Shown piece by piece: positions 40,811-53,248 of a DNA stretch of 64,000 nucleotides. Numbering within the stretch: the first letter of the stretch is position 1; each line of letters begins with the position of its first letter. The position numbers were made by a program, and so were the translations under genes. The notes below the pieces were generated by a model. It saw nothing but the letters and a program-made list of their open reading frames with translations, was not told where the DNA came from and did no database searches. The DNA is from Gammaproteobacteria bacterium (GTDB lineage Bacteria; Pseudomonadota; Gammaproteobacteria; Eutrophobiales; Eutrophobiaceae), in assembly GCA_965116495.1 (NCBI GenBank), contig OZ220696.1, forward strand, positions 256,001-320,000, given 5' to 3'.

Positions 40811-42055
40811 ATGGCTGATTATGTCACACATACCTTACCTGATGTCAGGTTGACCGATCACCTTCGTGAGATACTGGCCCAGCTTGACGAATCCAATGTT
40901 GAATTGAAGGACTGCATTAGCATGCCGCCGGCGGTATATACGTCCGAAGAGTGGTTCGATTTCGAGAAGCGGGCTGTCTGGGACAGGGAATGGATCTGCG
41001 TGGGGCACGTGGGTACGATACCACAGGCGGGCGATTACGTGTCCGTTACGATCAACGAAGACCCTCTCCTGGTACAGCGGCGGGATGACGGCGGCGTGCG
41101 GGTCATGTCTGCAGTGTGCCAGCACCGCGGTCACCTGTTGGGAGAGGAAAAAGGCAATACCCGGGTTTTTACCTGCCCTTTCCATGGCTGGTCCTACGAT
41201 GAAACGGGCAAGCTGGTCAGCGCCCCGGAAATGGACACTCATGCCAGCCTGGGTGAATTGCAGCAAAAATATTGCCTGCCGACATTGCGTACCGAGGTGT
41301 GGAACGGTTTTATCTTTATCAACATGGATGGTAACGCAAAACCCCTCGCCCCGCGCCTGAAACGGCTCGGCAAGGAGATTGAGAACCATCACCTCGCCGA
41401 GATGGGCGGTGTGCCTACGGTTGACTGGGGACCCAGTCCGTGGAACTGGAAATTCATGCACGAGAATGCCATTGAACCCCATCACACCTGGTACCTGCAC
41501 AAAGGGCCGCACGATTTTGCCCCTTCCAAGCTGGCTACTTTTGCAGAATGGGACGATTTCGATGACGGCGCCATATATCACCCGACCGGGTTCCTGGAAC
41601 TGGATGGTAATTTTACCTCTGCTTTCAGTTGCCTGTTTCCCGTGATCGAGGGCTTGAGCGAAAATGAACGCAAGCGGGTAATGTTCGCCTGTATCCTGCC
41701 CAACCTGTTCTTCGGTTGTGTGCCGGACGGTTGTTTTTATTACTGTATCCTGCCACAGGGCGCCAATGCCATGACCATCCGGGTCGGTTTTGTCTATCCT
41801 AAATCTACTCTGCGCATGGATAACTTCGATATCATTTTCAAGGCCGTTGTCATGGGTCTGGAAACCCTGAATGACCAGGATACCGGCGCCAACACCAATG
41901 TTCACAAGGGCCTGCGGTCACGTTTTGCGCCGCGTGGACGCTATGCCCCGAAAGAGGCGACCCTGCCGCAATTCAACCGCTGGTTGATAACCCGCTACAA
42001 GGCTTACGCGGCAGAGCTTGAAGGACGTAAGCAGACAGCTAAGCGGGTTGCTTGA
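40811..42055 (+). CDS. Rieske non-heme iron oxygenase, alpha subunit
   Basis: CQHRG...CPFHGW Rieske motif; ENAIEPHHTWYLH and DQD mononuclear-Fe ligands; start likely MADYV (40811). Confidence 0.93.
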   Translation: MADYVTHTLPDVRLTDHLREILAQLDESNVELKDCISMPPAVYTSEEWFDFEKRAVWDREWICVGHVGTIPQAGDYVSVTINEDPLLVQRRDDGGVRVMSAVCQHRGHLLGEEKGNTRVFTCPFHGWSYDETGKLVSAPEMDTHASLGELQQKYCLPTLRTEVWNGFIFINMDGNAKPLAPRLKRLGKEIENHHLAEMGGVPTVDWGPSPWNWKFMHENAIEPHHTWYLHKGPHDFAPSKLATFAEWDDFDDGAIYHPTGFLELDGNFTSAFSCLFPVIEGLSENERKRVMFACILPNLFFGCVPDGCFYYCILPQGANAMTIRVGFVYPKSTLRMDNFDIIFKAVVMGLETLNDQDTGANTNVHKGLRSRFAPRGRYAPKEATLPQFNRWLITRYKAYAAELEGRKQTAKRVA

Positions 42056-42058
42056 GGG

Positions 42059-42261
42059 GAATTAAGAATTACGAATTACGAATTAGGAATTAGGAATTAG
42101 GAATTAGTGCATCCTGGCAATTAGCAATCCATATTGTAAATTTTGCCAGAACTGAAATCCTTACACGTCGCCACATGCGTCTCATTCAATTCCTAATTCC
42201 TAATTCCTAATTCCTAATTCGTAATTCCTAATTCGTAATTCCTAATTCGTAATTCGTAATT
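42059..42261. repeat. Inverted pair of 7-nt tandem arrays, locus 2
   Basis: 7 x GAATTA(A/C/G) at 42059-42107, an 80-bp spacer, then 10 x AATTC(CT/GT) at 42188-42257. Confidence 0.95.
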
Positions 42262-42269
42262 ATATCGAT

Positions 42270-43022
42270 ATGAGTAATGAACTTGCCGAAATAAAGGGAC
42301 TGCTGGAAAAGCTGGATGCCAAGTTGACCCACCTCGAAGACGTGGAGGCGATACAGCGCCTGATAGTAACGTACGCCAGGGGTTGTGATCGCGGCAATGA
42401 CCCTGACGTCATCGGCCCCTGTTTCGCAGAAGACGGTACCTGGGAATGCAAGGGTTTCGGCAAATACCATGGCCGGGATAAACTGGCAAGGGGACTGCAC
42501 GGGATTGCCGGCGAGAAAATCTGGTGGTCGTTACACTACATGATCTCCCCGCTTATCGACATCGCTCCTGACGGTCTCAGCGCCACGGTATTCTGGTACC
42601 TGTGGGAATCGGCAACCGTACCCAACCCCCACACCAATGAGGCGGAATCCCACTGGATAGGCGGCACCTACGACTGTCAGTGCGTCAAGCGGGACGGACG
42701 CTGGCTGTTCCAGTCCATGGAATTGAAGCTGAATATGGTGAGTCCGTACGACGACGGTTGGGTAAAAGCCAAATTCCTCGATGGCAGCCGTAATTCACCC
42801 TACCTGATGAACCTGGACGAGGGTGAGTATTACTGGTGCGCCTGCGGCCGCTCGCAAAATCAGCCGTTCTGCGACGGTTCCCACAAGGAAACGAGACGCG
42901 TGCCGCTGCAATTCAAACTGGACGGCTTCCAGCATGTTGCCCTGTGCGGTTGCAAGTACTCGAAAACCAAGCCCTGGTGTGACGGTTCACATTTAAAACT
43001 CAACCTGGACCAGGGTTCCTGA
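42270..43022 (+). CDS. NTF2/SnoaL-like domain fused to two CDGSH [2Fe-2S] motifs
   Basis: N-terminal LEDVEAIQRL..YARGCD..FAEDGTW..H..GTY..KRDGRW; C-terminal WCACGRSQNQPFCDGSH and LCGCKYSKTKPWCDGSH. Confidence 0.88.
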   Translation: MSNELAEIKGLLEKLDAKLTHLEDVEAIQRLIVTYARGCDRGNDPDVIGPCFAEDGTWECKGFGKYHGRDKLARGLHGIAGEKIWWSLHYMISPLIDIAPDGLSATVFWYLWESATVPNPHTNEAESHWIGGTYDCQCVKRDGRWLFQSMELKLNMVSPYDDGWVKAKFLDGSRNSPYLMNLDEGEYYWCACGRSQNQPFCDGSHKETRRVPLQFKLDGFQHVALCGCKYSKTKPWCDGSHLKLNLDQGS

Positions 43023-43024
43023 CC

Positions 43025-44677
43025 ATGCTTTCCAGAAGAATATTCCTTAAATCATCCGTCGCGGCTGCAGGCGCGCCCCTGGCTGCCCATGCAGGGATGG
43101 TGGCAGGAGATGAACTGCAGGGGACCCCCCAGCCGGAGATTTTAACACCTGCCGAGTACAACCAGGCTGTTGAGGAATTGCGTCAGGTCGTCGGTGCTGA
43201 GTGGGTGGTTACCGATGAACAGCAGGAACTGAGAACGTATCGGGATGTCTATTCGACGCTACCTGACGAGGCTAATATGCCGTCTGCAGCGGTTGCGCCC
43301 AGGACCGTTGAGGAGATCCAGGCCATCCTGGGCATTGCCCGCAATTATAAGATTCCCCTTTGGACCGTTTCCACCGGCAAGAATTATGCCTACGGCGGTC
43401 CGGCGCCGCGCAAGCCCGGTTTTTTTGTCCTCGATTTAAACCGCATGAAGCGTATCATCGAGGTCAACGAGGAACACGGCTATGCCGTGGTTGAACCGGG
43501 GGTCAGCTATTTTGAGTTGTATAATTACCTGCAACAACGCGGCAGCAAATTATGGATAGACCCTGCGGCCCCGGGTTGGGGCAGCGTACTCGGCAACCTG
43601 TCGGAGCACGGAGCCGGTTACACACCCTATGGCGACCACCTGTTGATGAACTGCGGTATGCAGGTGGTGCTCGCCGACGGTACCGTCGTTGATACCGGCA
43701 TGGGGGCCTTGTCCGGCTCCACTACGTCCAGCCTGTACAAATATGGTTGCGGACCCTGGGTGGAAGGCATGTTCACCCAGTCAAATTTCGGCATCATAAC
43801 CAAAGTGGGTATCTGGTTGATGCCCGAGCCGCCGGGATACCGGCCATACCTGGTGACATTCCCGCGCGAAGAAGATCTTTACCGGATTACCGAGGTTGTC
43901 GGTCCCTTGCGTCTTAATATGTTGATACCCAATGCGGCAACGACCGTAGGACTGATCTGGGAAGCTGCCCCCAGGGCAACCAGGAAGCAGTATTACCGCG
44001 GTAAGGGTCCCATGCCCATGCGCCATCGCCAAAAAATGGCGGAGGACCTGGACATCGGCATGTGGAATTTTTACGGCGCGCTGTATGGACCTGAACCGAT
44101 TATGGATAACAACTGGAAAGTCCTGGAAGAGGCCTTTCGCAGCATCCCCGGCGCTAAATTTTACTTTGAAGGGGACAGGCCGAATGATCCGGCCTGGCGC
44201 TACCGGGTCAAGCTTATGCGCGGCGAACCGAACATGACCGAATTCAGCTTAATGAATTGGGTGGGCAGTGGTGCGCATATCGATTTCTCGCCGCGCTCAC
44301 CGGTAACCGGCGAGGATTCCATGAAACAGTTCACACTGATTAGGGACCGGGCGAATGAGTACGGGTTCGATTATATCGGTGAGTTCCTGGTGGGATGGCG
44401 TGAACTCCTGAACATCTTTCAACTGGTTTTTGATCGCCTGGATGACGATGAGCGGCGCCGCGCCCATGAGTGTTTCGGCCTGCTGGTCAATGATTTTGCC
44501 GAACAGGGTTATGGTGAGTACCGTACCCATCTCAATTTCATGGACGAGATTGCCGCCACCTATAACTGGAACGAAGGGGCGCTATGGAAATTACACCACA
44601 GAATCAAGCAGGCGCTCGATCCGGATGGTATTTTGTCACCGGGTAAAAGCGGCATTTGGCCATCTCAGGTAAGTTAA
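43025..44677 (+). CDS. VAO / p-cresol methylhydroxylase family flavoprotein with Tat signal
   Basis: SRRIFLK twin-arginine motif; STGKNYAYGG, VEPGVSY, GYTPYGDH, GAHIDFSP, GEYRTH, DPDGILSPGK. Confidence 0.92.
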   Translation: MLSRRIFLKSSVAAAGAPLAAHAGMVAGDELQGTPQPEILTPAEYNQAVEELRQVVGAEWVVTDEQQELRTYRDVYSTLPDEANMPSAAVAPRTVEEIQAILGIARNYKIPLWTVSTGKNYAYGGPAPRKPGFFVLDLNRMKRIIEVNEEHGYAVVEPGVSYFELYNYLQQRGSKLWIDPAAPGWGSVLGNLSEHGAGYTPYGDHLLMNCGMQVVLADGTVVDTGMGALSGSTTSSLYKYGCGPWVEGMFTQSNFGIITKVGIWLMPEPPGYRPYLVTFPREEDLYRITEVVGPLRLNMLIPNAATTVGLIWEAAPRATRKQYYRGKGPMPMRHRQKMAEDLDIGMWNFYGALYGPEPIMDNNWKVLEEAFRSIPGAKFYFEGDRPNDPAWRYRVKLMRGEPNMTEFSLMNWVGSGAHIDFSPRSPVTGEDSMKQFTLIRDRANEYGFDYIGEFLVGWRELLNIFQLVFDRLDDDERRRAHECFGLLVNDFAEQGYGEYRTHLNFMDEIAATYNWNEGALWKLHHRIKQALDPDGILSPGKSGIWPSQVS

Positions 44678-44680
44678 ACA

Positions 44681-45070
44681 GTGCTCCCTGTGTCCTCCGT
44701 GGCAAAAATATCCGTGGCAATATTGTTGTTATTGCTGGCGGGCTGTGGCGGTGATGAAGCCCCCGGGACAGGTGAGGCGGCAGTCGGGCAGGCCACCATG
44801 GCGATAGACCAGTATGATGGCAAAGGCTTGTTCGAGTTATATTGTATCGCCTGTCATGGCGCGGGACCCGGCCACCCGGGTACCATGCGCCTGCAGGAAA
44901 GGCTGAGTGAAGATCAGGCGCCCCTGCTCAGCCGGGATAACCTGGAGCCCGAGTATGTAAAGCTGGTGGTACGGGAAGGCTTCAAGCTGATGCCGCCGTT
45001 TCGCCCCAGTGAAATCACCGATAAGCAGTTGGACCTGTTGACGGGCTATATTACGGGGGAAGAAAACTGA
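44681..45070 (+). CDS. Monoheme cytochrome c, lipoprotein (PchC-like partner)
   Basis: LLAGC lipobox, CIACH, VREGFKLMPPFRPSEI. Confidence 0.88.
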   Translation: MLPVSSVAKISVAILLLLLAGCGGDEAPGTGEAAVGQATMAIDQYDGKGLFELYCIACHGAGPGHPGTMRLQERLSEDQAPLLSRDNLEPEYVKLVVREGFKLMPPFRPSEITDKQLDLLTGYITGEEN

Positions 45071-46554
45071 TGGATATGGAGACCGTCACATTATCACCTG
45101 AGGCCCGGGCCGTAGCGAAACGGGTCCGCAATCTACGTGATTACCTTGAATTACTGGCTGAGCACGGTCAGTGTATTACCTGGCCGGAAGCAGTCATGCC
45201 AGAGCCTGATATCCGTAAGGTTGTCGTTGCGTCCGGGCGCGATGCAATGGCGGGGCCGGCCATCCTGTTTGACAAGATCCGCGGTTACCCCGGAAAAAGA
45301 CTGGTAGTAGGCGTGCATGGCAGTTTTTCCAATATTGCCCTGCTGTTGGGCAAGACGAAAGGGACCAGTATCAAGGAATTGTTCTACGAACTTATAGGTC
45401 GTTGGGGCTCCGACAGGCCGCTGATCAACAGGGTGGAACCGGAAGATGCACCGGTGCACGAGAACAGGCTTGAAGCTGATATCAACCTGTATGACCTGCT
45501 GCCGTTGTATCGTATCAATTCCCTGGATGGCGGTTTTTATATCGCCAAGGCCAATATTGTCAGCCGCGATCCCCGTGACCCCGATAATTTTGCCAAACAG
45601 AACGTGGGAATATACCGCATCCAGGTACAGGGTCCTGACCGATTTACCTTGTTGTCTGTCCCGTCCCATGACATGGCGCAACAGATCCGCATGGCGGAAC
45701 AGGATGATGTCCCGTTGAAGATCGCCGTGATGATCGGCAACCACCCGGCCATGGCCATGTTTGCAGCCACTCCGGTGAATTACGACGAATCGGAATTTGC
45801 CTACGCCTCGCAGATGATGGGCAGCCCCATTGACCTGACCCGGTCCGGCAATGGCCTGGATATCCTCGCCGGCTCGGAAATGGTCATAGAAGCGCAATTA
45901 TTGAATAACCGGCGCTGCCTGGAAGGGCCGTTCGGAGAATTTCCGGGTAGTTACAGTGGTATTGGCCGAGTCCCCCTGTTCCAGGTGACTGCCGTATCCC
46001 ACCGTACCGAGCCCATCTTTGAAAGTATTTATATCGGCAAGGGCTGGACCGAGCACGACACCTTGATCGGGCTGAATACCTCTGCGCCCATTTACTCCCA
46101 ATTAAAGGAAAACTTTCCTGAAGTCGTTGCGGTGAACGCCTTGTACCAGCACGGTTTGACCGCGATCATTTCGGTGAAGAACCGGTTTGCCGGTTTCGCC
46201 AAATCAGTTGCCATGCGCGCCCTCGGGACACCCCACGGCCTGTTGTACCTGAAAAACCTTATCATGGTGGACGACGACGTGGATCCCTTTGATCTCAACC
46301 AGGTGATGTGGGCTCTGTCCACGCGCACCCGCGCCGGTGATATTATCGTCATACCCAACATGCCAATGGTGCACATTGACCCGTCTGCGGAAATTCCGGG
46401 CAAGGGACATCATCTTATCATTGACGCAACCAGCTTCATGCCGCCTGATCCCATCGGCGCTGACGCAAAAATCGTAGCGCCGCCCAGGGGTCCCGAAATA
46501 GATGACCTGGCAAAGTATATTCATCGTTTGCAAAGAGAGGCGGAAAACCGATGA
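45070..46554 (+). CDS. UbiD-family non-oxidative hydroxyarylic acid decarboxylase subunit C (VdcC/BsdC-like)
   Basis: DGGFY, QNVGIYRIQV, EGPFGEFPGSY, VDDDVDPF, WALSTR; followed by a D subunit. Confidence 0.92.
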   Translation: MDMETVTLSPEARAVAKRVRNLRDYLELLAEHGQCITWPEAVMPEPDIRKVVVASGRDAMAGPAILFDKIRGYPGKRLVVGVHGSFSNIALLLGKTKGTSIKELFYELIGRWGSDRPLINRVEPEDAPVHENRLEADINLYDLLPLYRINSLDGGFYIAKANIVSRDPRDPDNFAKQNVGIYRIQVQGPDRFTLLSVPSHDMAQQIRMAEQDDVPLKIAVMIGNHPAMAMFAATPVNYDESEFAYASQMMGSPIDLTRSGNGLDILAGSEMVIEAQLLNNRRCLEGPFGEFPGSYSGIGRVPLFQVTAVSHRTEPIFESIYIGKGWTEHDTLIGLNTSAPIYSQLKENFPEVVAVNALYQHGLTAIISVKNRFAGFAKSVAMRALGTPHGLLYLKNLIMVDDDVDPFDLNQVMWALSTRTRAGDIIVIPNMPMVHIDPSAEIPGKGHHLIIDATSFMPPDPIGADAKIVAPPRGPEIDDLAKYIHRLQREAENR

Positions 46555-46793
46555 ACTGCCCCCGCTGCCGCTCAACCAAAGAACACCTGCGGGTCGAATA
46601 CCAGGGCAGGGAAGGGGATGCCGTGCTCTGGACCGTGTATCACTGTAACCGTTGTTCGTTCACCTGGCGCGACAGCGAGCCGGCCGAATCGATAAATTAT
46701 ACAAAGCGGGAAGCCTGGTTCAGGGCCGATCCGGACCACCCGGAAAAATACAAACACAATATTCCCCCGGCAAGCCCGGACACAGGGGAATGA
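46551..46793 (+). CDS. Hydroxyarylic acid decarboxylase subunit D (VdcD/BsdD-like)
   Basis: CPRC...WTVYHCNRCSFTWRDSEP zinc-ribbon pattern; ATGA overlap with subunit C. Confidence 0.9.
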   Translation: MNCPRCRSTKEHLRVEYQGREGDAVLWTVYHCNRCSFTWRDSEPAESINYTKREAWFRADPDHPEKYKHNIPPASPDTGE

Positions 46794-46882
46794 TAATGTA
46801 TAGCGCACTTTTTTATTGCCCGGCATGGCGTAGAAAGAGGCGGTGGTGAGGAGACGACCCGTTGACTCCAGGATAAGCTTGT

Positions 46883-48316
46883 ATGTCAAAAATATTGATC
46901 AATAAACTGAGAAAAGAACTGGGCAGGGACGCTGTTTTGTCCGGCGCCGTTGCCGGTGATCGTTACTCACGCATCGGCAAATCACCGGTCGGTGTGGCGC
47001 TGCCGGAAGATATTGAACAGCTGCGGGCTGTATTGTCAGTTGCTGATGAAAGCAATATCTCGCTATGGGTCCTGCCCAACACGGCAGCTAACGGAGGCGT
47101 GGTTGGTCCTGCAACGGATAAGGATATCCTGGTAATCGATCAGTCCCGTATGAACAAAATCGTGGAGGTGAACGTCAAGGGAGCTTACGCACTGGTGGAA
47201 CCGGGCGTGAGTTATATGCAGTTAAATAACTACCTGCAGGAAAACAGGACCGGCCTGTGGGTGGATTGCGACAGGAACGGCTTGAACTCGGTTGCCGGCA
47301 GCATCAGCGCCCGGGAGTTCGGCTGTACCGCCTACGGCGACCACACAATGATGCAATGCGGTATGGAGCTCATTCTGGCTGACGGCGAACTGGTGAGACT
47401 GGGTATGGGCGCCATGCCGAAGAGCAACACCTGGCAGCTGGCAAAATATGCCTACGGCCCCTACCTGGATGGCCTGTTTACGCAATCCAACCTGGGCATC
47501 GTGACCAAAATGGGCGTATGGCTGATGCCGGCGCCGCCTGCATACCAGCCCTTCGCTGTGACCTTGAAGAGCGACGGTGACCTGGCCCAGGCGCTGGAGA
47601 TATTGCGTTCATTCAAGGTTAACGTAATCATTCCGAACACGGTGGTCATCAGTAATCCGGAACTGGATGCGAGTCCTTACGCGTCACGGGATGATTATAC
47701 CGACGGCAAAACGGTCGATACGGAACGGCTGGCAGCGGATTATGGTCTGGGCCAGTGGACCCTGTATGGGGCCTTGTATAACACCCCTCCCAACATCGAT
47801 GTATTATGGCCCATGGTACGCAGCGCATTCGCCGGCATTCAGGACGCTGTAGTGTTCGACCTGAACAACCAGGCGGACAACCCGGTATTTGCCGGCAGGG
47901 AGAACATGATGCGCGGCCGGCCCTCGCTGGAATTCAGTAACCTGAACAACTGGTCCGGCCAGTCTCACCTGTACGCCGGGTTTGTCTCCCCCATTGACGG
48001 CCGGCAGGTATTGAAGATGAATAAACTGGCCAGCGACACGGTGCGCAGCAGCGGATTTGATTACCTGACGGAGTACGCGGTCGGCTGGCGCTCCGTCATC
48101 CAGCGGGTTTATCTGACGTATCAAAGTGAAGCCGAACCCAGGGCGGTCGCGTGTCTTGAAACATTGATAGACTCGATGGCACAACGGGGTTTCGGCGTGA
48201 GCCATATCAGCACCGGGTACCTGGACCGGGCCCTGGCCGGCTATGATAACGCCGGCATGTCCGAATTGCGCGGCAGGCTCAAACAGGCGCTGGATCCCGG
48301 CAACCTGTTTGCCTGA
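46883..48316 (+). CDS. Second VAO/PCMH-family flavoprotein, no signal peptide, divergent active site
   Basis: VEPGVSY, YGDH, YGPYLDGLFTQSNLGIVTKMG, LKQALDP; lacks the NYxYGG and YR motifs. Confidence 0.85.
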   Translation: MSKILINKLRKELGRDAVLSGAVAGDRYSRIGKSPVGVALPEDIEQLRAVLSVADESNISLWVLPNTAANGGVVGPATDKDILVIDQSRMNKIVEVNVKGAYALVEPGVSYMQLNNYLQENRTGLWVDCDRNGLNSVAGSISAREFGCTAYGDHTMMQCGMELILADGELVRLGMGAMPKSNTWQLAKYAYGPYLDGLFTQSNLGIVTKMGVWLMPAPPAYQPFAVTLKSDGDLAQALEILRSFKVNVIIPNTVVISNPELDASPYASRDDYTDGKTVDTERLAADYGLGQWTLYGALYNTPPNIDVLWPMVRSAFAGIQDAVVFDLNNQADNPVFAGRENMMRGRPSLEFSNLNNWSGQSHLYAGFVSPIDGRQVLKMNKLASDTVRSSGFDYLTEYAVGWRSVIQRVYLTYQSEAEPRAVACLETLIDSMAQRGFGVSHISTGYLDRALAGYDNAGMSELRGRLKQALDPGNLFA

Positions 48317-48335: not shown

Positions 48336-49010
48336 TCACTCTCCCGGGACTCCATAACCCGGGGCTGATGACGGGTTGTTTGCGCGTGATATGTAATCAG
48401 CCATTTGCGGGGCATATCTATCCCATAATTCCCTGAGTTCGGCCAAAGGATTATGGTCTGTCCAGTCAATACGTAGATCTACCAGGGGCCAGCTGTTGCC
48501 ACCGACAACCAGCAAACCGGCGGAGTGTATCGGTCCTGCTTCGCCGCCTGCTTTCAAACCCCCATCCATTGCATCGAGCAAACGGTCAGCCAGCAAAGTT
48601 TTGCCCGAGTCAAGAAATTCGTCAATCATCACCGTTGTGACATTACCGGCGCTTAATAAATTACCTGCGGCTATACAGTTTTTACCCCGTGAGATATTAT
48701 TAATTCCGAGCGATTTGCTGCCGTTGAACCCGCTTGTACTGCCCTGGTTATCTACGGCAATCACCTGTCTGTAATCTGCATTAACTTCATTACTCATCAC
48801 TTCCAGCATAGCCGCTTTGACGTCCTTTCCTTGTTCCATTTGATCCAGGATTGCAGGCCCTAAAGAGGGTAGAGTGATATTTTGGGTAGATACTGCCCCC
48901 ACTCCGGATCTCGCCCATGGACATCTGCTCGCAACGCATATACTGGAAGACGAAATCGCAATGCCATATTGTTCAGTTTGATGACACTTTGCAACGATTG
49001 AGAAAGTCAT
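48336..49010 (-). CDS. DUF1028 family protein (Ntn-hydrolase-like)
   Basis: MTFSIVA start, GVGAVSTQN, AAGNLL, AGGEAGP, DLRID. Confidence 0.9.
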   Translation of the reverse strand: MTFSIVAKCHQTEQYGIAISSSSICVASRCPWARSGVGAVSTQNITLPSLGPAILDQMEQGKDVKAAMLEVMSNEVNADYRQVIAVDNQGSTSGFNGSKSLGINNISRGKNCIAAGNLLSAGNVTTVMIDEFLDSGKTLLADRLLDAMDGGLKAGGEAGPIHSAGLLVVGGNSWPLVDLRIDWTDHNPLAELRELWDRYAPQMADYISRANNPSSAPGYGVPGE

Positions 49011-49025
49011 GATTAGGGATTATAT

Positions 49026-49460
49026 TTATTCAGGAATGACCGCTGTTACTTCTATTTCCATCAGCCATTCTGGTTTGGCCAGGCCCTGTACAATCAATCC
49101 CGTAGAAACGGGATAAACACCCTTCAGCCACCTGCCCAGTACACGGTAAACCGGCTCGCGATAAGATCGATCGGTGATATAGACTTGCATCCTGCAAATA
49201 TGCGCCAGCTCACTGCCTGCCTCGCGCAATAGTTGATCGACATTCTTCATTGCTTGATCTGCCTGTGCTGCCGGGTCACCGGCGCCAACGAGATTTCCCT
49301 TCAGGTCAGTTCCAACCTGGCCACGCAGGAAGATGATGTTGCCGGCTATCACGGCCTGACAAAGATCATTATCCAGGTTTTGCTCAGGATAGGTCTCTTT
49401 GGTGTTGAACTTGCGAAATCGTTTATGGATCGGCATGAAGGGTAAATCCATTATTGTCAT
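49026..49460 (-). CDS. RidA/YjgF family protein
   Basis: FLRGQVG, QADQAMKN, PVSTGL, EIEVTAV. Confidence 0.9.
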   Translation of the reverse strand: MTIMDLPFMPIHKRFRKFNTKETYPEQNLDNDLCQAVIAGNIIFLRGQVGTDLKGNLVGAGDPAAQADQAMKNVDQLLREAGSELAHICRMQVYITDRSYREPVYRVLGRWLKGVYPVSTGLIVQGLAKPEWLMEIEVTAVIPE

Positions 49461-50956
49461 ACAGCTTTCAGTTTTACTTTATTTTGAAAATCCTCTTTAC
49501 CCGCTGATTTTGAATCAATTCTGTCGGAAAGTCTTGCCGCTTTTTTGACAATATTCAGGGGTTCATCCCAATCGAAGTTACGATATACCGCCGCCAGGTG
49601 TGCAAAAGGAGGTGATTGTGCGAATAATTGAAAGGTAAGCCGATGGCTGGCATAGTCGGAGTTTAATAAATCACGGGCAAAAGCGAGCAATCTGCGACGG
49701 TCTTCCGAGACCCAGTTATCATTTATGCTGTAGTACTTGTCTAACCAGACTCCGCTGTCACTGTCGGTAAATGCGGCCGCATCCGGGGTGATACAGACCT
49801 GACCGCCGCAGAGCTCTCTTGTGAGGTGCATCATTTCATGTAATTGGGAGCAGGCCAGTACCCGACCTGTGTACAGAAGGGATTGATTAGGCATCAACAA
49901 ACCGCCCGGACTTTTCTGCGCCGTTGCGATTGCTGCGGTCAGGTGGGCATTAATACCTTCCCGGTAAACAGCCAGTGCAGAGAGTTTTTCCTGGACAGCC
50001 GGCTGTTTTTCCAGACCCGTCTGTCTGACATTGTACAGGGCTGCGCCAATCATCATGTCGGCCATTTTCAAATTCCGCTGTACGAAAGCGAATGCGCTGT
50101 ACCTGTGCAGGGTTGCTCGAATAAACGTTGCTGCCCTGGTATGGCGATAAAACAGCACGTTTTCCCACGGGATCAATACATCATCGAAAACAACAAGCGC
50201 GTCTATTTCATCAAACCTGTTTGACAGGGGGTAATCTTCAAGAGGCGCACGACCTGTAAAACCTGTCCGGCATATCATTTTAATGCCCTTTGACCCCAGG
50301 TTACAGATGAAGCCAACCGCATATTCTGATAGAGCCGCATTACCCCAATTTGCGATAGTAGGCTTGGTAAAGGCTTGATTGGCATAAGCTGCCGCAGTTT
50401 CATATTTGGCCCCCCTTACTACTATCCCTGCATCAGTTTCCCTGACAACATGGAGCAGCATGTCAGGGTCCTGTTCCTGCGGGGGTTTGGAACGATCTCC
50501 CTTGGGGTCGGTATTGGCGGACACATGAAAAGGATCAGTTTTTGTGATTCGATTAACATGCCGTTTAATGTTGTCTGCAAAGCGCGGGTCGACTTCGTTA
50601 AGAATATCCTGTCCATCGTATAAGGACCACACTTCTCCAACGGTTTCATCACCAACCCTGGTAACTACACCACCGATATCATTTAACACGGTATCCGTTG
50701 CCTTGCGTTTGTCATGCCAGTCCTGTTGTGTATGGGGCAGCTTGAGTGAGATCGCGTTCGTCTCCCCCTTATCATCGATGTAAGTCATAATCTGACGCGT
50801 GCTTTCATCATGCGCCATGTCATAAATACGCGCCCTGATATCGACTATCGGTTTAAATGCGGGATGGGAAGGAACATCCTTGATTTTTTCTCCATCCATG
50901 TAAACTTCACGCCCATCACGAATGGACTCGATATATTCCTTGCCAGTACGAATCAT
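49457..50956 (-). CDS. 4-hydroxyphenylacetate 3-hydroxylase (HpaB) family monooxygenase, oxygenase component
   Basis: RTGKEYIESIRDGREVY, DPKGDRS, GIVVRGAK, PLSNRFDEID, IPWENV. Confidence 0.88.
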   Translation of the reverse strand: MIRTGKEYIESIRDGREVYMDGEKIKDVPSHPAFKPIVDIRARIYDMAHDESTRQIMTYIDDKGETNAISLKLPHTQQDWHDKRKATDTVLNDIGGVVTRVGDETVGEVWSLYDGQDILNEVDPRFADNIKRHVNRITKTDPFHVSANTDPKGDRSKPPQEQDPDMLLHVVRETDAGIVVRGAKYETAAAYANQAFTKPTIANWGNAALSEYAVGFICNLGSKGIKMICRTGFTGRAPLEDYPLSNRFDEIDALVVFDDVLIPWENVLFYRHTRAATFIRATLHRYSAFAFVQRNLKMADMMIGAALYNVRQTGLEKQPAVQEKLSALAVYREGINAHLTAAIATAQKSPGGLLMPNQSLLYTGRVLACSQLHEMMHLTRELCGGQVCITPDAAAFTDSDSGVWLDKYYSINDNWVSEDRRRLLAFARDLLNSDYASHRLTFQLFAQSPPFAHLAAVYRNFDWDEPLNIVKKAARLSDRIDSKSAGKEDFQNKVKLKAV

Positions 50957-51051
50957 TTACATAACTCCGTTAAAGACAGCATCACTTAGGTATTAGAGAG
51001 ATTTCTAAGCGCGGGATAGAGAGTCTAAAGGCAGGAGAGAATAAAACCAAT

Positions 51052-51081
51052 TATAAAAAATGTATGTCAAAGATAAAAAAT
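51052..51081. promoter_or_regulatory. Putative LysR-type operator upstream of the hpaB-like operon
   Basis: T-N11-A / ATA-N7-TAT at 51052-51065; ATAAAAAAT repeated 20 nt apart; LysR gene nearby. Confidence 0.45.
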
Positions 51082-51114
51082 AGTTTAAATATCACCTTCA
51101 TAATTATCCTTGAG

Positions 51115-52269
51115 CTACGGATGTGTCATACGGGAAATTAAATTTCCCATGAATTTTTCACCACGCAATATTTGCTCGAAGGTAATGAATTCATCCGGTT
51201 TATGTGCCTGGGCGATACTGCCCGGACCGCAAATCACGGTGGGAATATTGATACTATGAAACAGTCCGCCTTCGGTCCCAAAATCGATTTTAGCCGTATC
51301 AGATCGGGAAACAAGTGATTTTACGAAGGAGACTGCTTCACTGTCAGGATGAGTGAAGAGGCCGGGATAGGAGGTTTTTTCAATGATTGTGATATCCGTA
51401 TTCTTATGGGTTCTTCGCATCAATGGTTTAAGAACGCTATTTGCAAAATTCTTGATTTTATCCAGATAAGCCTGTGGGTCATCGTCCGGAAGATTTCTAA
51501 TCTCAAATTCAAACTCACAATTATCCGGAACAATATTCAGTAGACGCCCGCCTGAAATCGGGCCGGTATTGAGGGTCGTGTATGCAATATCATAATCCGG
51601 GTCAAACGGGCCTTTATCAGCGATCTCCTTCTGTAGAGACCGGATAAAGACGATTAATTCAGCGGCGTACTCCACCGCGTTAATCCCTTCGATTACGGCG
51701 AGCGCGGAATGGCACTCCTGTCCATCCACACAAACATGAAACGCAACTTTCCCCTTGTGACCATTGATTACCTGCATCCCGGTCGGCTCACCCACAATAC
51801 ACAATCCTGGTAAAACCAAAAAATCCTTCAGTTTGTCAATCAGACTCCTTACCCCCAAACAACCTACTTCTTCATCATATGAAAAGGACAGGTGTAAGGG
51901 CAGCTTTAAATCCAGTTTTGTCATATCCGGAATAAATGACAACACAATCGCGATGAAGCTCTTCATATCCACACAACCTCTTCCAAAAAGACGGTTGTCA
52001 TTTTCCTGTACTCTGAAAGGTTCGGTCGACCAGTCCTGCCCGTCAACCGGAACCACGTCGGTATGCCCCGAGAGCAGGATGCCGGATTGGTTCGGGTTTC
52101 CTATCGTGGCAAAGAGGTTGGCCTTCGTTTTGTCGGCATTGTAGATTAATTCGCTGGTAACCCCATATTCATCCAGGTAATTTTCTATAAACCGGATTAA
52201 CTCCAAGTTGGAAAGCCTGCTTGTTGTGTTAAAGGAAACCAGTTCCTCAATTAATTTCCTGCTTCGCAT
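51115..52269 (-). CDS. argE: M20 peptidase, acetylornithine deacetylase (ArgE)-like
   Basis: SGHTDVVP, GRGCVDMK, YDEEVGC, GTEGG, QAHKPDE; context suggests a catabolic paralogue. Confidence 0.85.
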   Translation of the reverse strand: MRSRKLIEELVSFNTTSRLSNLELIRFIENYLDEYGVTSELIYNADKTKANLFATIGNPNQSGILLSGHTDVVPVDGQDWSTEPFRVQENDNRLFGRGCVDMKSFIAIVLSFIPDMTKLDLKLPLHLSFSYDEEVGCLGVRSLIDKLKDFLVLPGLCIVGEPTGMQVINGHKGKVAFHVCVDGQECHSALAVIEGINAVEYAAELIVFIRSLQKEIADKGPFDPDYDIAYTTLNTGPISGGRLLNIVPDNCEFEFEIRNLPDDDPQAYLDKIKNFANSVLKPLMRRTHKNTDITIIEKTSYPGLFTHPDSEAVSFVKSLVSRSDTAKIDFGTEGGLFHSINIPTVICGPGSIAQAHKPDEFITFEQILRGEKFMGNLISRMTHP

Positions 52270-52330
52270 GGCGCGAATTATAGCTTATCTGGGGTGCTGA
52301 ACTGTGTAGCGGCAGTGTGGAGCGACCAAA

Positions 52331-53248
52331 TCAGGAGGCCAGGTCAGTTACATCGTTTGACTGACAAAACTCCAGAAATCTTTTTGCTACGGCAGTAGCT
52401 TGCAACCCATCAAGGTGTGCGGCGCAGACTATGCTGGGTTTCAGTTTTTCAGAGATAGGTCGCCTTACAATGGGATGATGTTCATAGGTGATGTCCGATG
52501 GAGGTCGGGTAACCAGAATGGAAACACCGAGATTCCAACCCACCAATCCACGCAATACTTCCAGCGAGGGTGCTTTGTATACAATATTCGGTTTCAGGTT
52601 GTATTCCTCAAACAGACCTAAGAAGTACTGGCGAGCCGATGAAAAATCCAGAAGCACAAACGCTTCATCCACAAGGTCATACAAAGACACGCATTCTTTG
52701 CCGGCGAGTGGGTGATCTTCTGAAAGCACGGCATAGGGCTGACCTTCCAGGATTGGAAGTACTGCTATGTCATGGGGAACACTGATGTCATACAACAGGG
52801 CGAGTTCAATCTCACCGGTTCTTAATTGTTCAATTATCCGGTCCTGATCGCCTTCTGATAAGGTGAACTCTACTTTTGGGTATTTTTCCTGAAAGCGTTT
52901 AATCAGGGTCGGCATGAATACAGGGGACAGAGGCGCGTAACTGCCGATGCTGAGTTCTCCGGACAACTCCTCACTGAGGGCCATCGCCGTGTGCTGGAAC
53001 GCTTCAGCATGCCTGACCAGGTTTCTTGCTTCTGCGAGAACTTTTTTCCCGGCTGGGGTAAGCGTAATTCCATGAGCATGGTGGCGATTTATCAAATCAA
53101 CGCCGAATTGGGTTTCCAACTTGGTAATTGCGGAAGCAATAGCCGGCTGTGCAATATGCACGTGTCTCGCAGCCTTGGTCAGACTCTCGTGTTCGGCAGT
53201 AGCGATAAAATAAGTAAGTTGCCTTAGTGTGTATTTCAGCCTCGCCAT
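52331..53248 (-). CDS. LysR-family transcriptional regulator
   Basis: TLRQLTYF..SLTKAA..IAQPAIASAI HTH, LTPAG. Confidence 0.95.
   Translation of the reverse strand: MARLKYTLRQLTYFIATAEHESLTKAARHVHIAQPAIASAITKLETQFGVDLINRHHAHGITLTPAGKKVLAEARNLVRHAEAFQHTAMALSEELSGELSIGSYAPLSPVFMPTLIKRFQEKYPKVEFTLSEGDQDRIIEQLRTGEIELALLYDISVPHDIAVLPILEGQPYAVLSEDHPLAGKECVSLYDLVDEAFVLLDFSSARQYFLGLFEEYNLKPNIVYKAPSLEVLRGLVGWNLGVSILVTRPPSDITYEHHPIVRRPISEKLKPSIVCAAHLDGLQATAVAKRFLEFCQSNDVTDLAS

Follow-up and report, generated by a model that had tools for sequence, protein, structure and literature searches.

The window, that is the whole stretch of 64,000 nucleotides that was analysed, carries a Rieske oxygenase gene followed by a gene that joins an NTF2-fold domain to two CDGSH motifs, and then flavoprotein, cytochrome and decarboxylase genes:

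40811..42055, + strand: Rieske oxygenase alpha subunit, 414 aa, CntA/Stc2-like, complete (Pfam Rieske and Ring_hydroxyl_A)
42058..42261, unstranded: REP/MITE-like element between the genes, in which a unique core of 80 nt is flanked on both sides by arrays of a 7-nt repeat, inverted to each other
42270..43022, + strand: fusion gene, product P0001 of 250 aa, NTF2 (SnoaL_4) domain followed by tandem CDGSH motifs (open reading frame, Pfam and AlphaFold2 model)
42270..42779, + strand: within the fusion, a long helix at the N-terminus (residues 3-40) followed by an NTF2 barrel of the LdpA/LinA/BaiE type, with pocket residues Y35, D40, H89, E113 and Y134
42837..42884, + strand: CDGSH motif 1 (C190, C192, C201, H205; type-6 Gln, Q198), degenerate in some sphingomonad homologues
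42945..42992, + strand: CDGSH motif 2 (C226, C228, C237, H241; type-6 Lys, K229), near invariant
43025..44677, + strand: flavoprotein of the VAO/p-cresol-methylhydroxylase family, N-terminus twin-arginine-like by eye, starting 2 nt past the fusion stop
44681..45070, + strand: cytochrome c (Pfam), probably the PCMH-type partner
45070..46554, + strand: VdcC-type UbiD hydroxyarylic-acid decarboxylase (NCBIfam NF041204, above cut-off)
46551..46793, + strand: Cys-rich ORF of 80 aa in which Pfam finds only a zinc ribbon and which we take to be VdcD-like
46883..48316, + strand: second VAO-family flavoprotein (Pfam), 36% identical to the first

About 25 paired repeat arrays like that at 42058-42261 occur in the window's genome (G000), and in contigs its arms also flank other cores; this element is not part of the fusion/alpha system.

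As the first-pass annotation of this DNA had claimed, the fusion ORF is uninterrupted (42270-43022, + strand, no internal stop) and both CDGSH motifs are intact, with C190/C192/C201/H205 and C226/C228/C237/H241 complete. Pfam recognises SnoaL_4 at residues 21-150 of P0001 (E 8.8e-23) and two zf-CDGSH stretches (E 1.4e-20). The AlphaFold2 model, built on an alignment of 99 sequences, has high confidence along its whole length (pLDDT 94.3, pTM 0.88) and shows a helix at residues 3-40, an NTF2 barrel until about residue 165 and then the CDGSH module. Both Pfam domains are found in 103 of the 120 homologues listed (the best 120 of 239), with 86-100% query coverage and 48-96% identity, and the spacing at the domain junction is 26-27 residues in all 99 aligned fusion members. 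Furthermore, contigs of runs X2 and X5 (studies P1 and P2) span 42234/42226-43400 with no differing letter and no gap, although the study behind X2 may include the window's own source. The same annotation had asked whether the fusion resulted from a lost stop codon or an assembly error. Since there are about 100 full-length homologues, since the junction length is constant in the aligned members, since the fusion occurs at 53 genome loci in several phyla and since the contigs of two studies are identical, such an origin is practically inconceivable.

Cultured hosts of the fusion include Novosphingobium sp. Rr 2-17, Leaf2, AP12, BL-52-GroH and N. profundi. One homologue (L051:8001-8770) is frameshifted near residue 60 in its assembly, and a very similar copy at L033 is intact. 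Another member, EIZ78796.1, was deposited under the name 'glutamate synthase' and appears as a label in the supplement of a 2018 CISD survey (PMC5859297; here and below, papers are cited for the available parts of their text). This name is a mis-annotation, corrected by the present architecture. A search of 400 further genomes of the phylum gave no member of the family (E<=1e-30). RNA runs contained only 6-14% of the sequence words, two of them (X15 and X16) giving short, divergent pieces, and a promoter scan stayed at chance level.

The C-terminal part of P0001 is a type-6 tandem CDGSH domain, with two C-x-C-x8-C-x3-H motifs about 20 residues apart. Its best PDB match is MmCISD from Magnetospirillum (3TBN, E 3.8e-19); human CISD3/MiNT (6AVJ), which has the same tandem 3Cys-1His motifs, comes third. 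All eight cluster ligands are present in 92 of the 99 fusion members and motif 2 is retained in 98. The residues specific to types 5 and 6, Gln33 and Lys64 of MmCISD (PMC3174974), are also found in the fusion (Q198 in 92/99, K/R229 in 95/99). By homology to 3TBN, P0001 would bind two [2Fe-2S] clusters. Unlike type-6 CISDs, the fusion carries its CDGSH pair behind an NTF2 domain; in type-5 CISDs, CDGSH is fused to a glutamate-synthase domain (PMC3174974). The NTF2 fusion is not named in the available text and supplements, figures excepted, of two CISD surveys (PMC3174974, PMC5859297). The window's genome also contains two stand-alone tandem-CDGSH genes (L057:4577-4822, - strand; L058:4587-4847, + strand), each by oxygenase genes. 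One lies directly upstream of an acyl-CoA-dehydrogenase-fold gene, likely a flavin monooxygenase, and near a small Rieske-domain gene, and the other is convergent with a homotrimeric ring-hydroxylase alpha gene.

The SnoaL_4 profile matches all 99 fusion members, and the fold is the cone-shaped NTF2 fold. Sequence and fold searches with P0001 return LdpA, LinA and BaiE, LdpA being the top match of the NTF2 part both by sequence (E 2.5e-10) and with Foldseek. Fold comparison (VIA) gave Z 19.5 for LinA (rmsd 1.6, 142 aligned) and Z 17.8 for LdpA (rmsd 2.2, 169 aligned). As in LdpA (8ABT/8ABU/8ABV; PMC9942872), LinA (3A76) and BaiE (4L8P), the long N-terminal helix, the dyad and the tyrosines are kept. 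LdpA uses a His-Asp acid-base dyad and a tyrosine oxyanion hole (PMC9942872), and Y35/D40/H89/Y134 of P0001 correspond, in a HMMER alignment, to Tyr35/Asp40/His97/Tyr147 of NaLdpA. These residues are conserved in 99/99/98/99 of the 99 fusions and in 62/68/68/64 of 68 wider relatives (mean column identity 31%), D40 and H89 being invariant in the latter and both tyrosines exceeding 90%; within the genome loci, which were found by NTF2-pocket patterns, motif conservation is not independent. The conserved dyad and tyrosines fit a lyase-type pocket in P0001. However, P0001 differs from LdpA by an identity of only about 25%, by its two C-terminal CDGSH motifs and by a gene tied to Rieske oxygenases. 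Moreover, the Motif II acid of LdpA, Glu143, is replaced by Ile130 (Ile or Val in 99/99), so the reaction is not that of LdpA; a different Glu, E113, is kept in 97/99 fusions. The true beta subunits of the window's genome keep the pocket Asp (9/9) and His (9/10), so that the dyad alone is no proof of catalysis and only the tyrosines discriminate.

Relatives of about 160 aa without CDGSH motifs are numerous (1305 matches at E<=0.001). None of 588 candidates of 439-2000 aa proved to be a longer protein with this NTF2 domain, such as a Rosetta-stone fusion to an alpha subunit, which is weak evidence, and Pfam found no Rieske domain in 11 mostly longer NTF2 relatives, which have NTF2 repeats, esterase or NMT1 instead. 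Three of the long proteins (P0127, P0163 and P0217) carry three tandem NTF2 domains per chain of 650-1019 aa, some with esterase or NMT1, and are possibly single-chain versions of a trimer.

The alpha gene lies upstream of the fusion on the same strand, across a 214-nt gap that the repeat element occupies. The fusion had been described as standing directly after a partnerless Rieske oxygenase; this holds for the gene order and for the local lack of partners, but the situation is not special. The window's genome has 59 Rieske-domain matches vs 11 beta subunits, 2 Reductase_C and 6 FAD_binding_6 matches, and a partnerless state is therefore ordinary in it. This genome shows a strong expansion of Rieske oxygenases, about 51 of the 59 matches lying in alpha-sized frames, with few reductases. 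By alignment, the alpha has Rieske ligands C103/H105/C122/H125, a bridging Glu (E222) and iron ligands H225/H230/D357; the Rieske and iron ligands are invariant and the bridging position is a Glu. By profile and by model it is closest to the alpha3 enzymes CntA and Stc2, with a modest margin over alpha3beta3 dioxygenases and about 20% identity. It thus resembles the Group V alpha3 oxygenases CntA and Stc2 (PMC7948474) in best match and bridging Glu. In that group, position 203 of CntA is Y/F in Va and Asn in Vb (PMC7948474). The alpha differs from CntA in that its residue aligned with CntA Y203 is Ile221 and in that no CntB-like reductase lies near it, and from the quaternary-amine chemistry of CntA/Stc2 in that its neighbours suggest phenols and N-heterocycles.

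The link to Rieske oxygenases proposed in the first-pass annotation is strongly supported. An alpha gene lies directly upstream of the fusion in 50 of 53 genome loci, and in 35 of 38 once the 15 loci with a fusion at least 85% identical to P0001 are dropped. These 53 loci belong to Pseudomonadota, Binatota, Myxococcota and to records labelled Planctomycetota and Actinomycetota; the exceptions are L016 and L021, with no alpha within the sampled DNA, and L034, with an alpha 3.7 kb away. Within the genus, 20 of 22 genomes have either both genes or neither (an adjacent pair in 16, neither gene in 4), the other 2 being fragmented and ambiguous. Hence, the possibility that homologues never co-occur with Rieske oxygenases is contradicted by their neighbourhoods. 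As only about 5.5% of the window's genome lies within 2.5 kb of an alpha gene, chance does not explain this linkage. The fusion adjoins three alpha subtypes that are 25-42% identical to the window's alpha, three loci reaching only 25-27%. A second fusion paralog lies in tandem, upstream of the third alpha subtype, in the window's genome, and is divergent from different alpha paralogs in G001 and G003. In a control of 8 loci in 4 genomes, CDGSH-less relatives have a Rieske gene within 5 kb in 2/8 loci and otherwise lie among unrelated genes; two CDGSH-less relatives in the window's genome lie near alphas.

The reverse linkage is looser. It was assessed in 59 metagenome loci of the same alpha clade, 8 of which are short of downstream DNA, and some of which repeat genome loci or one another. 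In the 51 assessable loci, the fusion is directly behind the alpha in 32 (5 cut by a contig end), 1.9 kb on in 2, and absent from the sampled flank in 17. For instance, L097, L098 and L100 keep the ferredoxin-alpha-regulator order and have no fusion gene. Six genus genomes also hold a 53-54% identical alpha without a listed adjoining fusion (two of the six checked). Since alpha loci exist without it, the fusion is not obligatory: it nearly always has an adjoining alpha, the alpha is often without the fusion, and the fusion is thus an accessory and not an obligatory subunit. The alpha and NTF2 distances, taken with a quick tree, correlate (r 0.93), and 12 splits of 27/21 are shared, with 5 conflicting; both indicate joint inheritance only, which gene linkage alone would give.

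Nine reductase queries matched in none of 87 fusion loci, vs 3 of 25 fusion-less loci. All alphas of the window's genome have few reductase genes beside them, so that finding none near the fusion says little. A Rieske ferredoxin is encoded divergently upstream in a mainly alphaproteobacterial clade. In total, 25 fusion loci (3 cut) carry such a ferredoxin, which means that the CDGSH module is not a simple ferredoxin replacement. The Rieske clusters of oxygenases are usually lower in potential than mitoNEET, at about -50 to -150 mV. With a midpoint of about 0 to -30 mV for mitoNEET (PMC9490426, PMC9737848), electron transfer could be uphill, which is a serious obstacle to a relay. Among complete fusions, motif 1 is lost in 7 of the 22 that have a Rieske ferredoxin gene next to them and in 1 of the 59 that do not, that one locus having a cut upstream flank. 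This decay fits a two-cluster wire whose entry relaxes beside a ferredoxin; since the losses are confined to a single sphingomonad clade and 17% of type 5/6 CISDs have one degenerate motif in any case (PMC3174974), the pattern is weak.

In the window, two flavoproteins and one cytochrome c flank the VdcC/VdcD-like pair (43025-48316). The UbiX-type flavoprotein of relatives (e.g. L020:14150) is not seen in this cluster, and the genome contains two further VdcC-like genes (69-71%). The flavoprotein cluster recurs in 25 of the loci that were clustered, most of which are closely related. In Binatota, the loci also have an HpaB-family hydroxylase and an extradiol dioxygenase. TauD, PfkB, amidase, isochorismatase and urease genes occur in sphingomonad loci, and other fusion loci carry molybdo-hydroxylases, hydantoinases or an intradiol dioxygenase. 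These neighbourhoods point to phenols as substrates in some lineages and to N-containing rings in others, and the substrate of the oxygenase and fusion probably differs between lineages. A role in riboflavin/lumichrome catabolism, prompted by urease, amidase, xanthine-dehydrogenase and ribokinase neighbours, was considered and dropped. The enzyme described for that pathway is a canonical alpha/beta dioxygenase with ferredoxin and reductase, SnoaL/NTF2 going unmentioned in the available text (PMC12746152).

Starting from the domain architecture, the conservation of cluster ligands and LdpA-type pocket residues, and the gene linkage, we infer every mechanistic step of a reading that we favour, though tentatively and at somewhat less than even confidence. 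The fusion may be an optional accessory of a CntA/Stc2-type alpha, whose CDGSH pair relays electrons and whose NTF2 pocket acts on the product. Electrons would come from a reductase or from reduced flavin encoded elsewhere, and the CDGSH pair would pass them to the Rieske cluster of the oxygenase. If the fusion is a trimer like LdpA, a three-to-three match with an alpha3 oxygenase would be possible. In the NTF2 pocket, the oxygenase product would undergo an elimination: through the His-Asp dyad and the two tyrosines, a hydroxylated intermediate may lose water, formaldehyde or some other leaving group, yielding a phenol in the loci that also carry VAO/VdcC/catechol-dioxygenase genes. This accessory reading is supported because the fusion stays beside a Rieske alpha though the alpha subtype changes, because its CDGSH-less relatives are mostly not Rieske-linked and because no reductase was matched in the 87 fusion loci. 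It is also supported by mitoNEET, which relays electrons from FMNH2 to acceptors (PMC9490426), and by the two stand-alone CDGSH genes of the window's genome, which both adjoin oxygenase genes. The alpha swaps at 25-40% identity fit poorly with a product-specific lyase. As in the alpha3beta3 naphthalene and biphenyl dioxygenases, an alpha gene is followed here by an NTF2-fold gene and a small [2Fe-2S] module is present; unlike in these enzymes, the NTF2 domain belongs to the lyase branch, the clusters are of the 3Cys-1His kind and no reductase gene is seen in the fusion loci. A bolder version, which we regard as speculative and rather doubtful, is a re-invention of the alpha3beta3-plus-ferredoxin design: a trimeric NTF2 lyase would cap a beta-less alpha3, place three NEET-type two-cluster wires at its Rieske centres and receive an unstable product straight into the lyase site.

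The first-pass annotation had offered two options, a 'beta subunit' carrying its own electron carrier and a redox-gated dehydratase. Under the former, the fusion would be a structural subunit in an alpha3beta3 enzyme, bringing its own ferredoxin and having a vestigial pocket. The shared NTF2 fold, the alpha-then-NTF2 gene order and the Asp/His positions common to betas agree with it, as do the correlated alpha/NTF2 distances, though gene linkage alone would give these. However, the Ring_hydroxyl_B profile (PF00866), which finds the 11 true beta subunits of the window's genome, matches none of the 99 fusion members at E<=1. The fusion family profile scores at most 2.5 bits against these 11 beta ORFs and hhalign gives a probability of 8% (2 of the 11 ORFs being short at the chosen start). 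A 20-25-residue insertion after the first strand, present in 9/9 full beta rows, is absent from 8 fusion/SnoaL rows. No beta subunit is named among the listed matches of two fold searches, which LinA and LdpA lead, but one may stand among the unlisted matches. The alpha's own best matches are alpha3 enzymes, by a small margin, the alpha often occurs without the fusion and the tyrosines of the pocket do not vary. The wording 'built-in subunit' has against it the looser linkage seen from the alpha side, the comparison with true beta subunits and the ferredoxin pattern. We therefore find the beta label unsupported and consider a structural beta role improbable. The dehydratase option fares better in that a lyase fits the conserved pocket. 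In one form, which is possible but on balance unlikely, a free pathway lyase (dehydratase, deformylase or decarboxylase) would act after the oxygenase, and the CDGSH pair would be a redox, oxygen or iron gating sensor or an acquired appendage, with no relay. Such a role would suit the conserved LdpA-type pocket, the numerous CDGSH-less relatives of about 160 aa that lie in unrelated contexts as if autonomous, and the alphas that can be without the fusion or can have their own ferredoxin, but it leaves unexplained why the fused form is tied to three alpha subtypes and why motif 2 is retained in 98/99 members.

The CDGSH module could also deliver or repair the [2Fe-2S] cluster of the alpha as a NEET-type donor, the NTF2 domain being a lyase or a docking scaffold. 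Oxidised mitoNEET does hand its cluster to apo-proteins (PMC9737848), and a generic maturation role would fit the partner swaps, the coexistence with ferredoxin, the optional presence of the fusion and the survival of one-cluster variants. However, about 50 other alpha-sized Rieske genes of the genome have no such neighbour, and cluster donation gives no reason for a fusion to a conserved catalytic pocket. We judge it to have little likelihood.

We found no published description of an NTF2-CDGSH fusion, nor of CDGSH paired with SnoaL or with a Rieske oxygenase, nor of a Rieske protein with nuclear transport factor 2 and p-cresol methylhydroxylase, in a literature search with most subscription papers outside its scope. 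Papers on Rieske oxygenase and SnoaL operons, judged by title and the start of the abstract, include none on this system. A review of Rieske oxygenases calls beta subunits non-catalytic and does not mention CDGSH in its available text (PMC12445004), and the available parts of the CISD literature assign no partner to bacterial tandem CDGSH homologues. Whether tandem CDGSH proteins of the CISD3/MiNT type transfer electrons or clusters is still debated. In the fusion the CDGSH pair is joined to a domain of the enzyme type, and the gene is linked to that of an obvious candidate for the acceptor, so that two soluble proteins are concerned. Its cultured hosts and natural one-cluster variants make the question of the CDGSH role directly testable. 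If the accessory reading is true, it would give bacterial CDGSH clusters a concrete job, a first defined role as redox partner, and would add a new type of component to Rieske oxygenase systems, whose redox partners are known to be hard to find.

Several fusion loci also encode small proteins with no Pfam match. One of 76-125 aa recurs beside the second alpha subtype, where an EthD-family gene is often present too (L028:6436-6783, L055:10814-11152, L015:6220, L019:6179 and L041:4516). Others, of 186-201 aa and with twin-arginine-like N-termini, are encoded between the genes for the fusion and the VAO flavoprotein in loci of Binatota and of some Gammaproteobacteria (L027:7004-7609 and L015:8752-9312). 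Downstream of the second flavoprotein gene, the window carries on its reverse strand (48336-53248) a cluster of LysR, M20 peptidase, HpaB-family hydroxylase, RidA and DUF1028 genes, which only L004 and L017 share.
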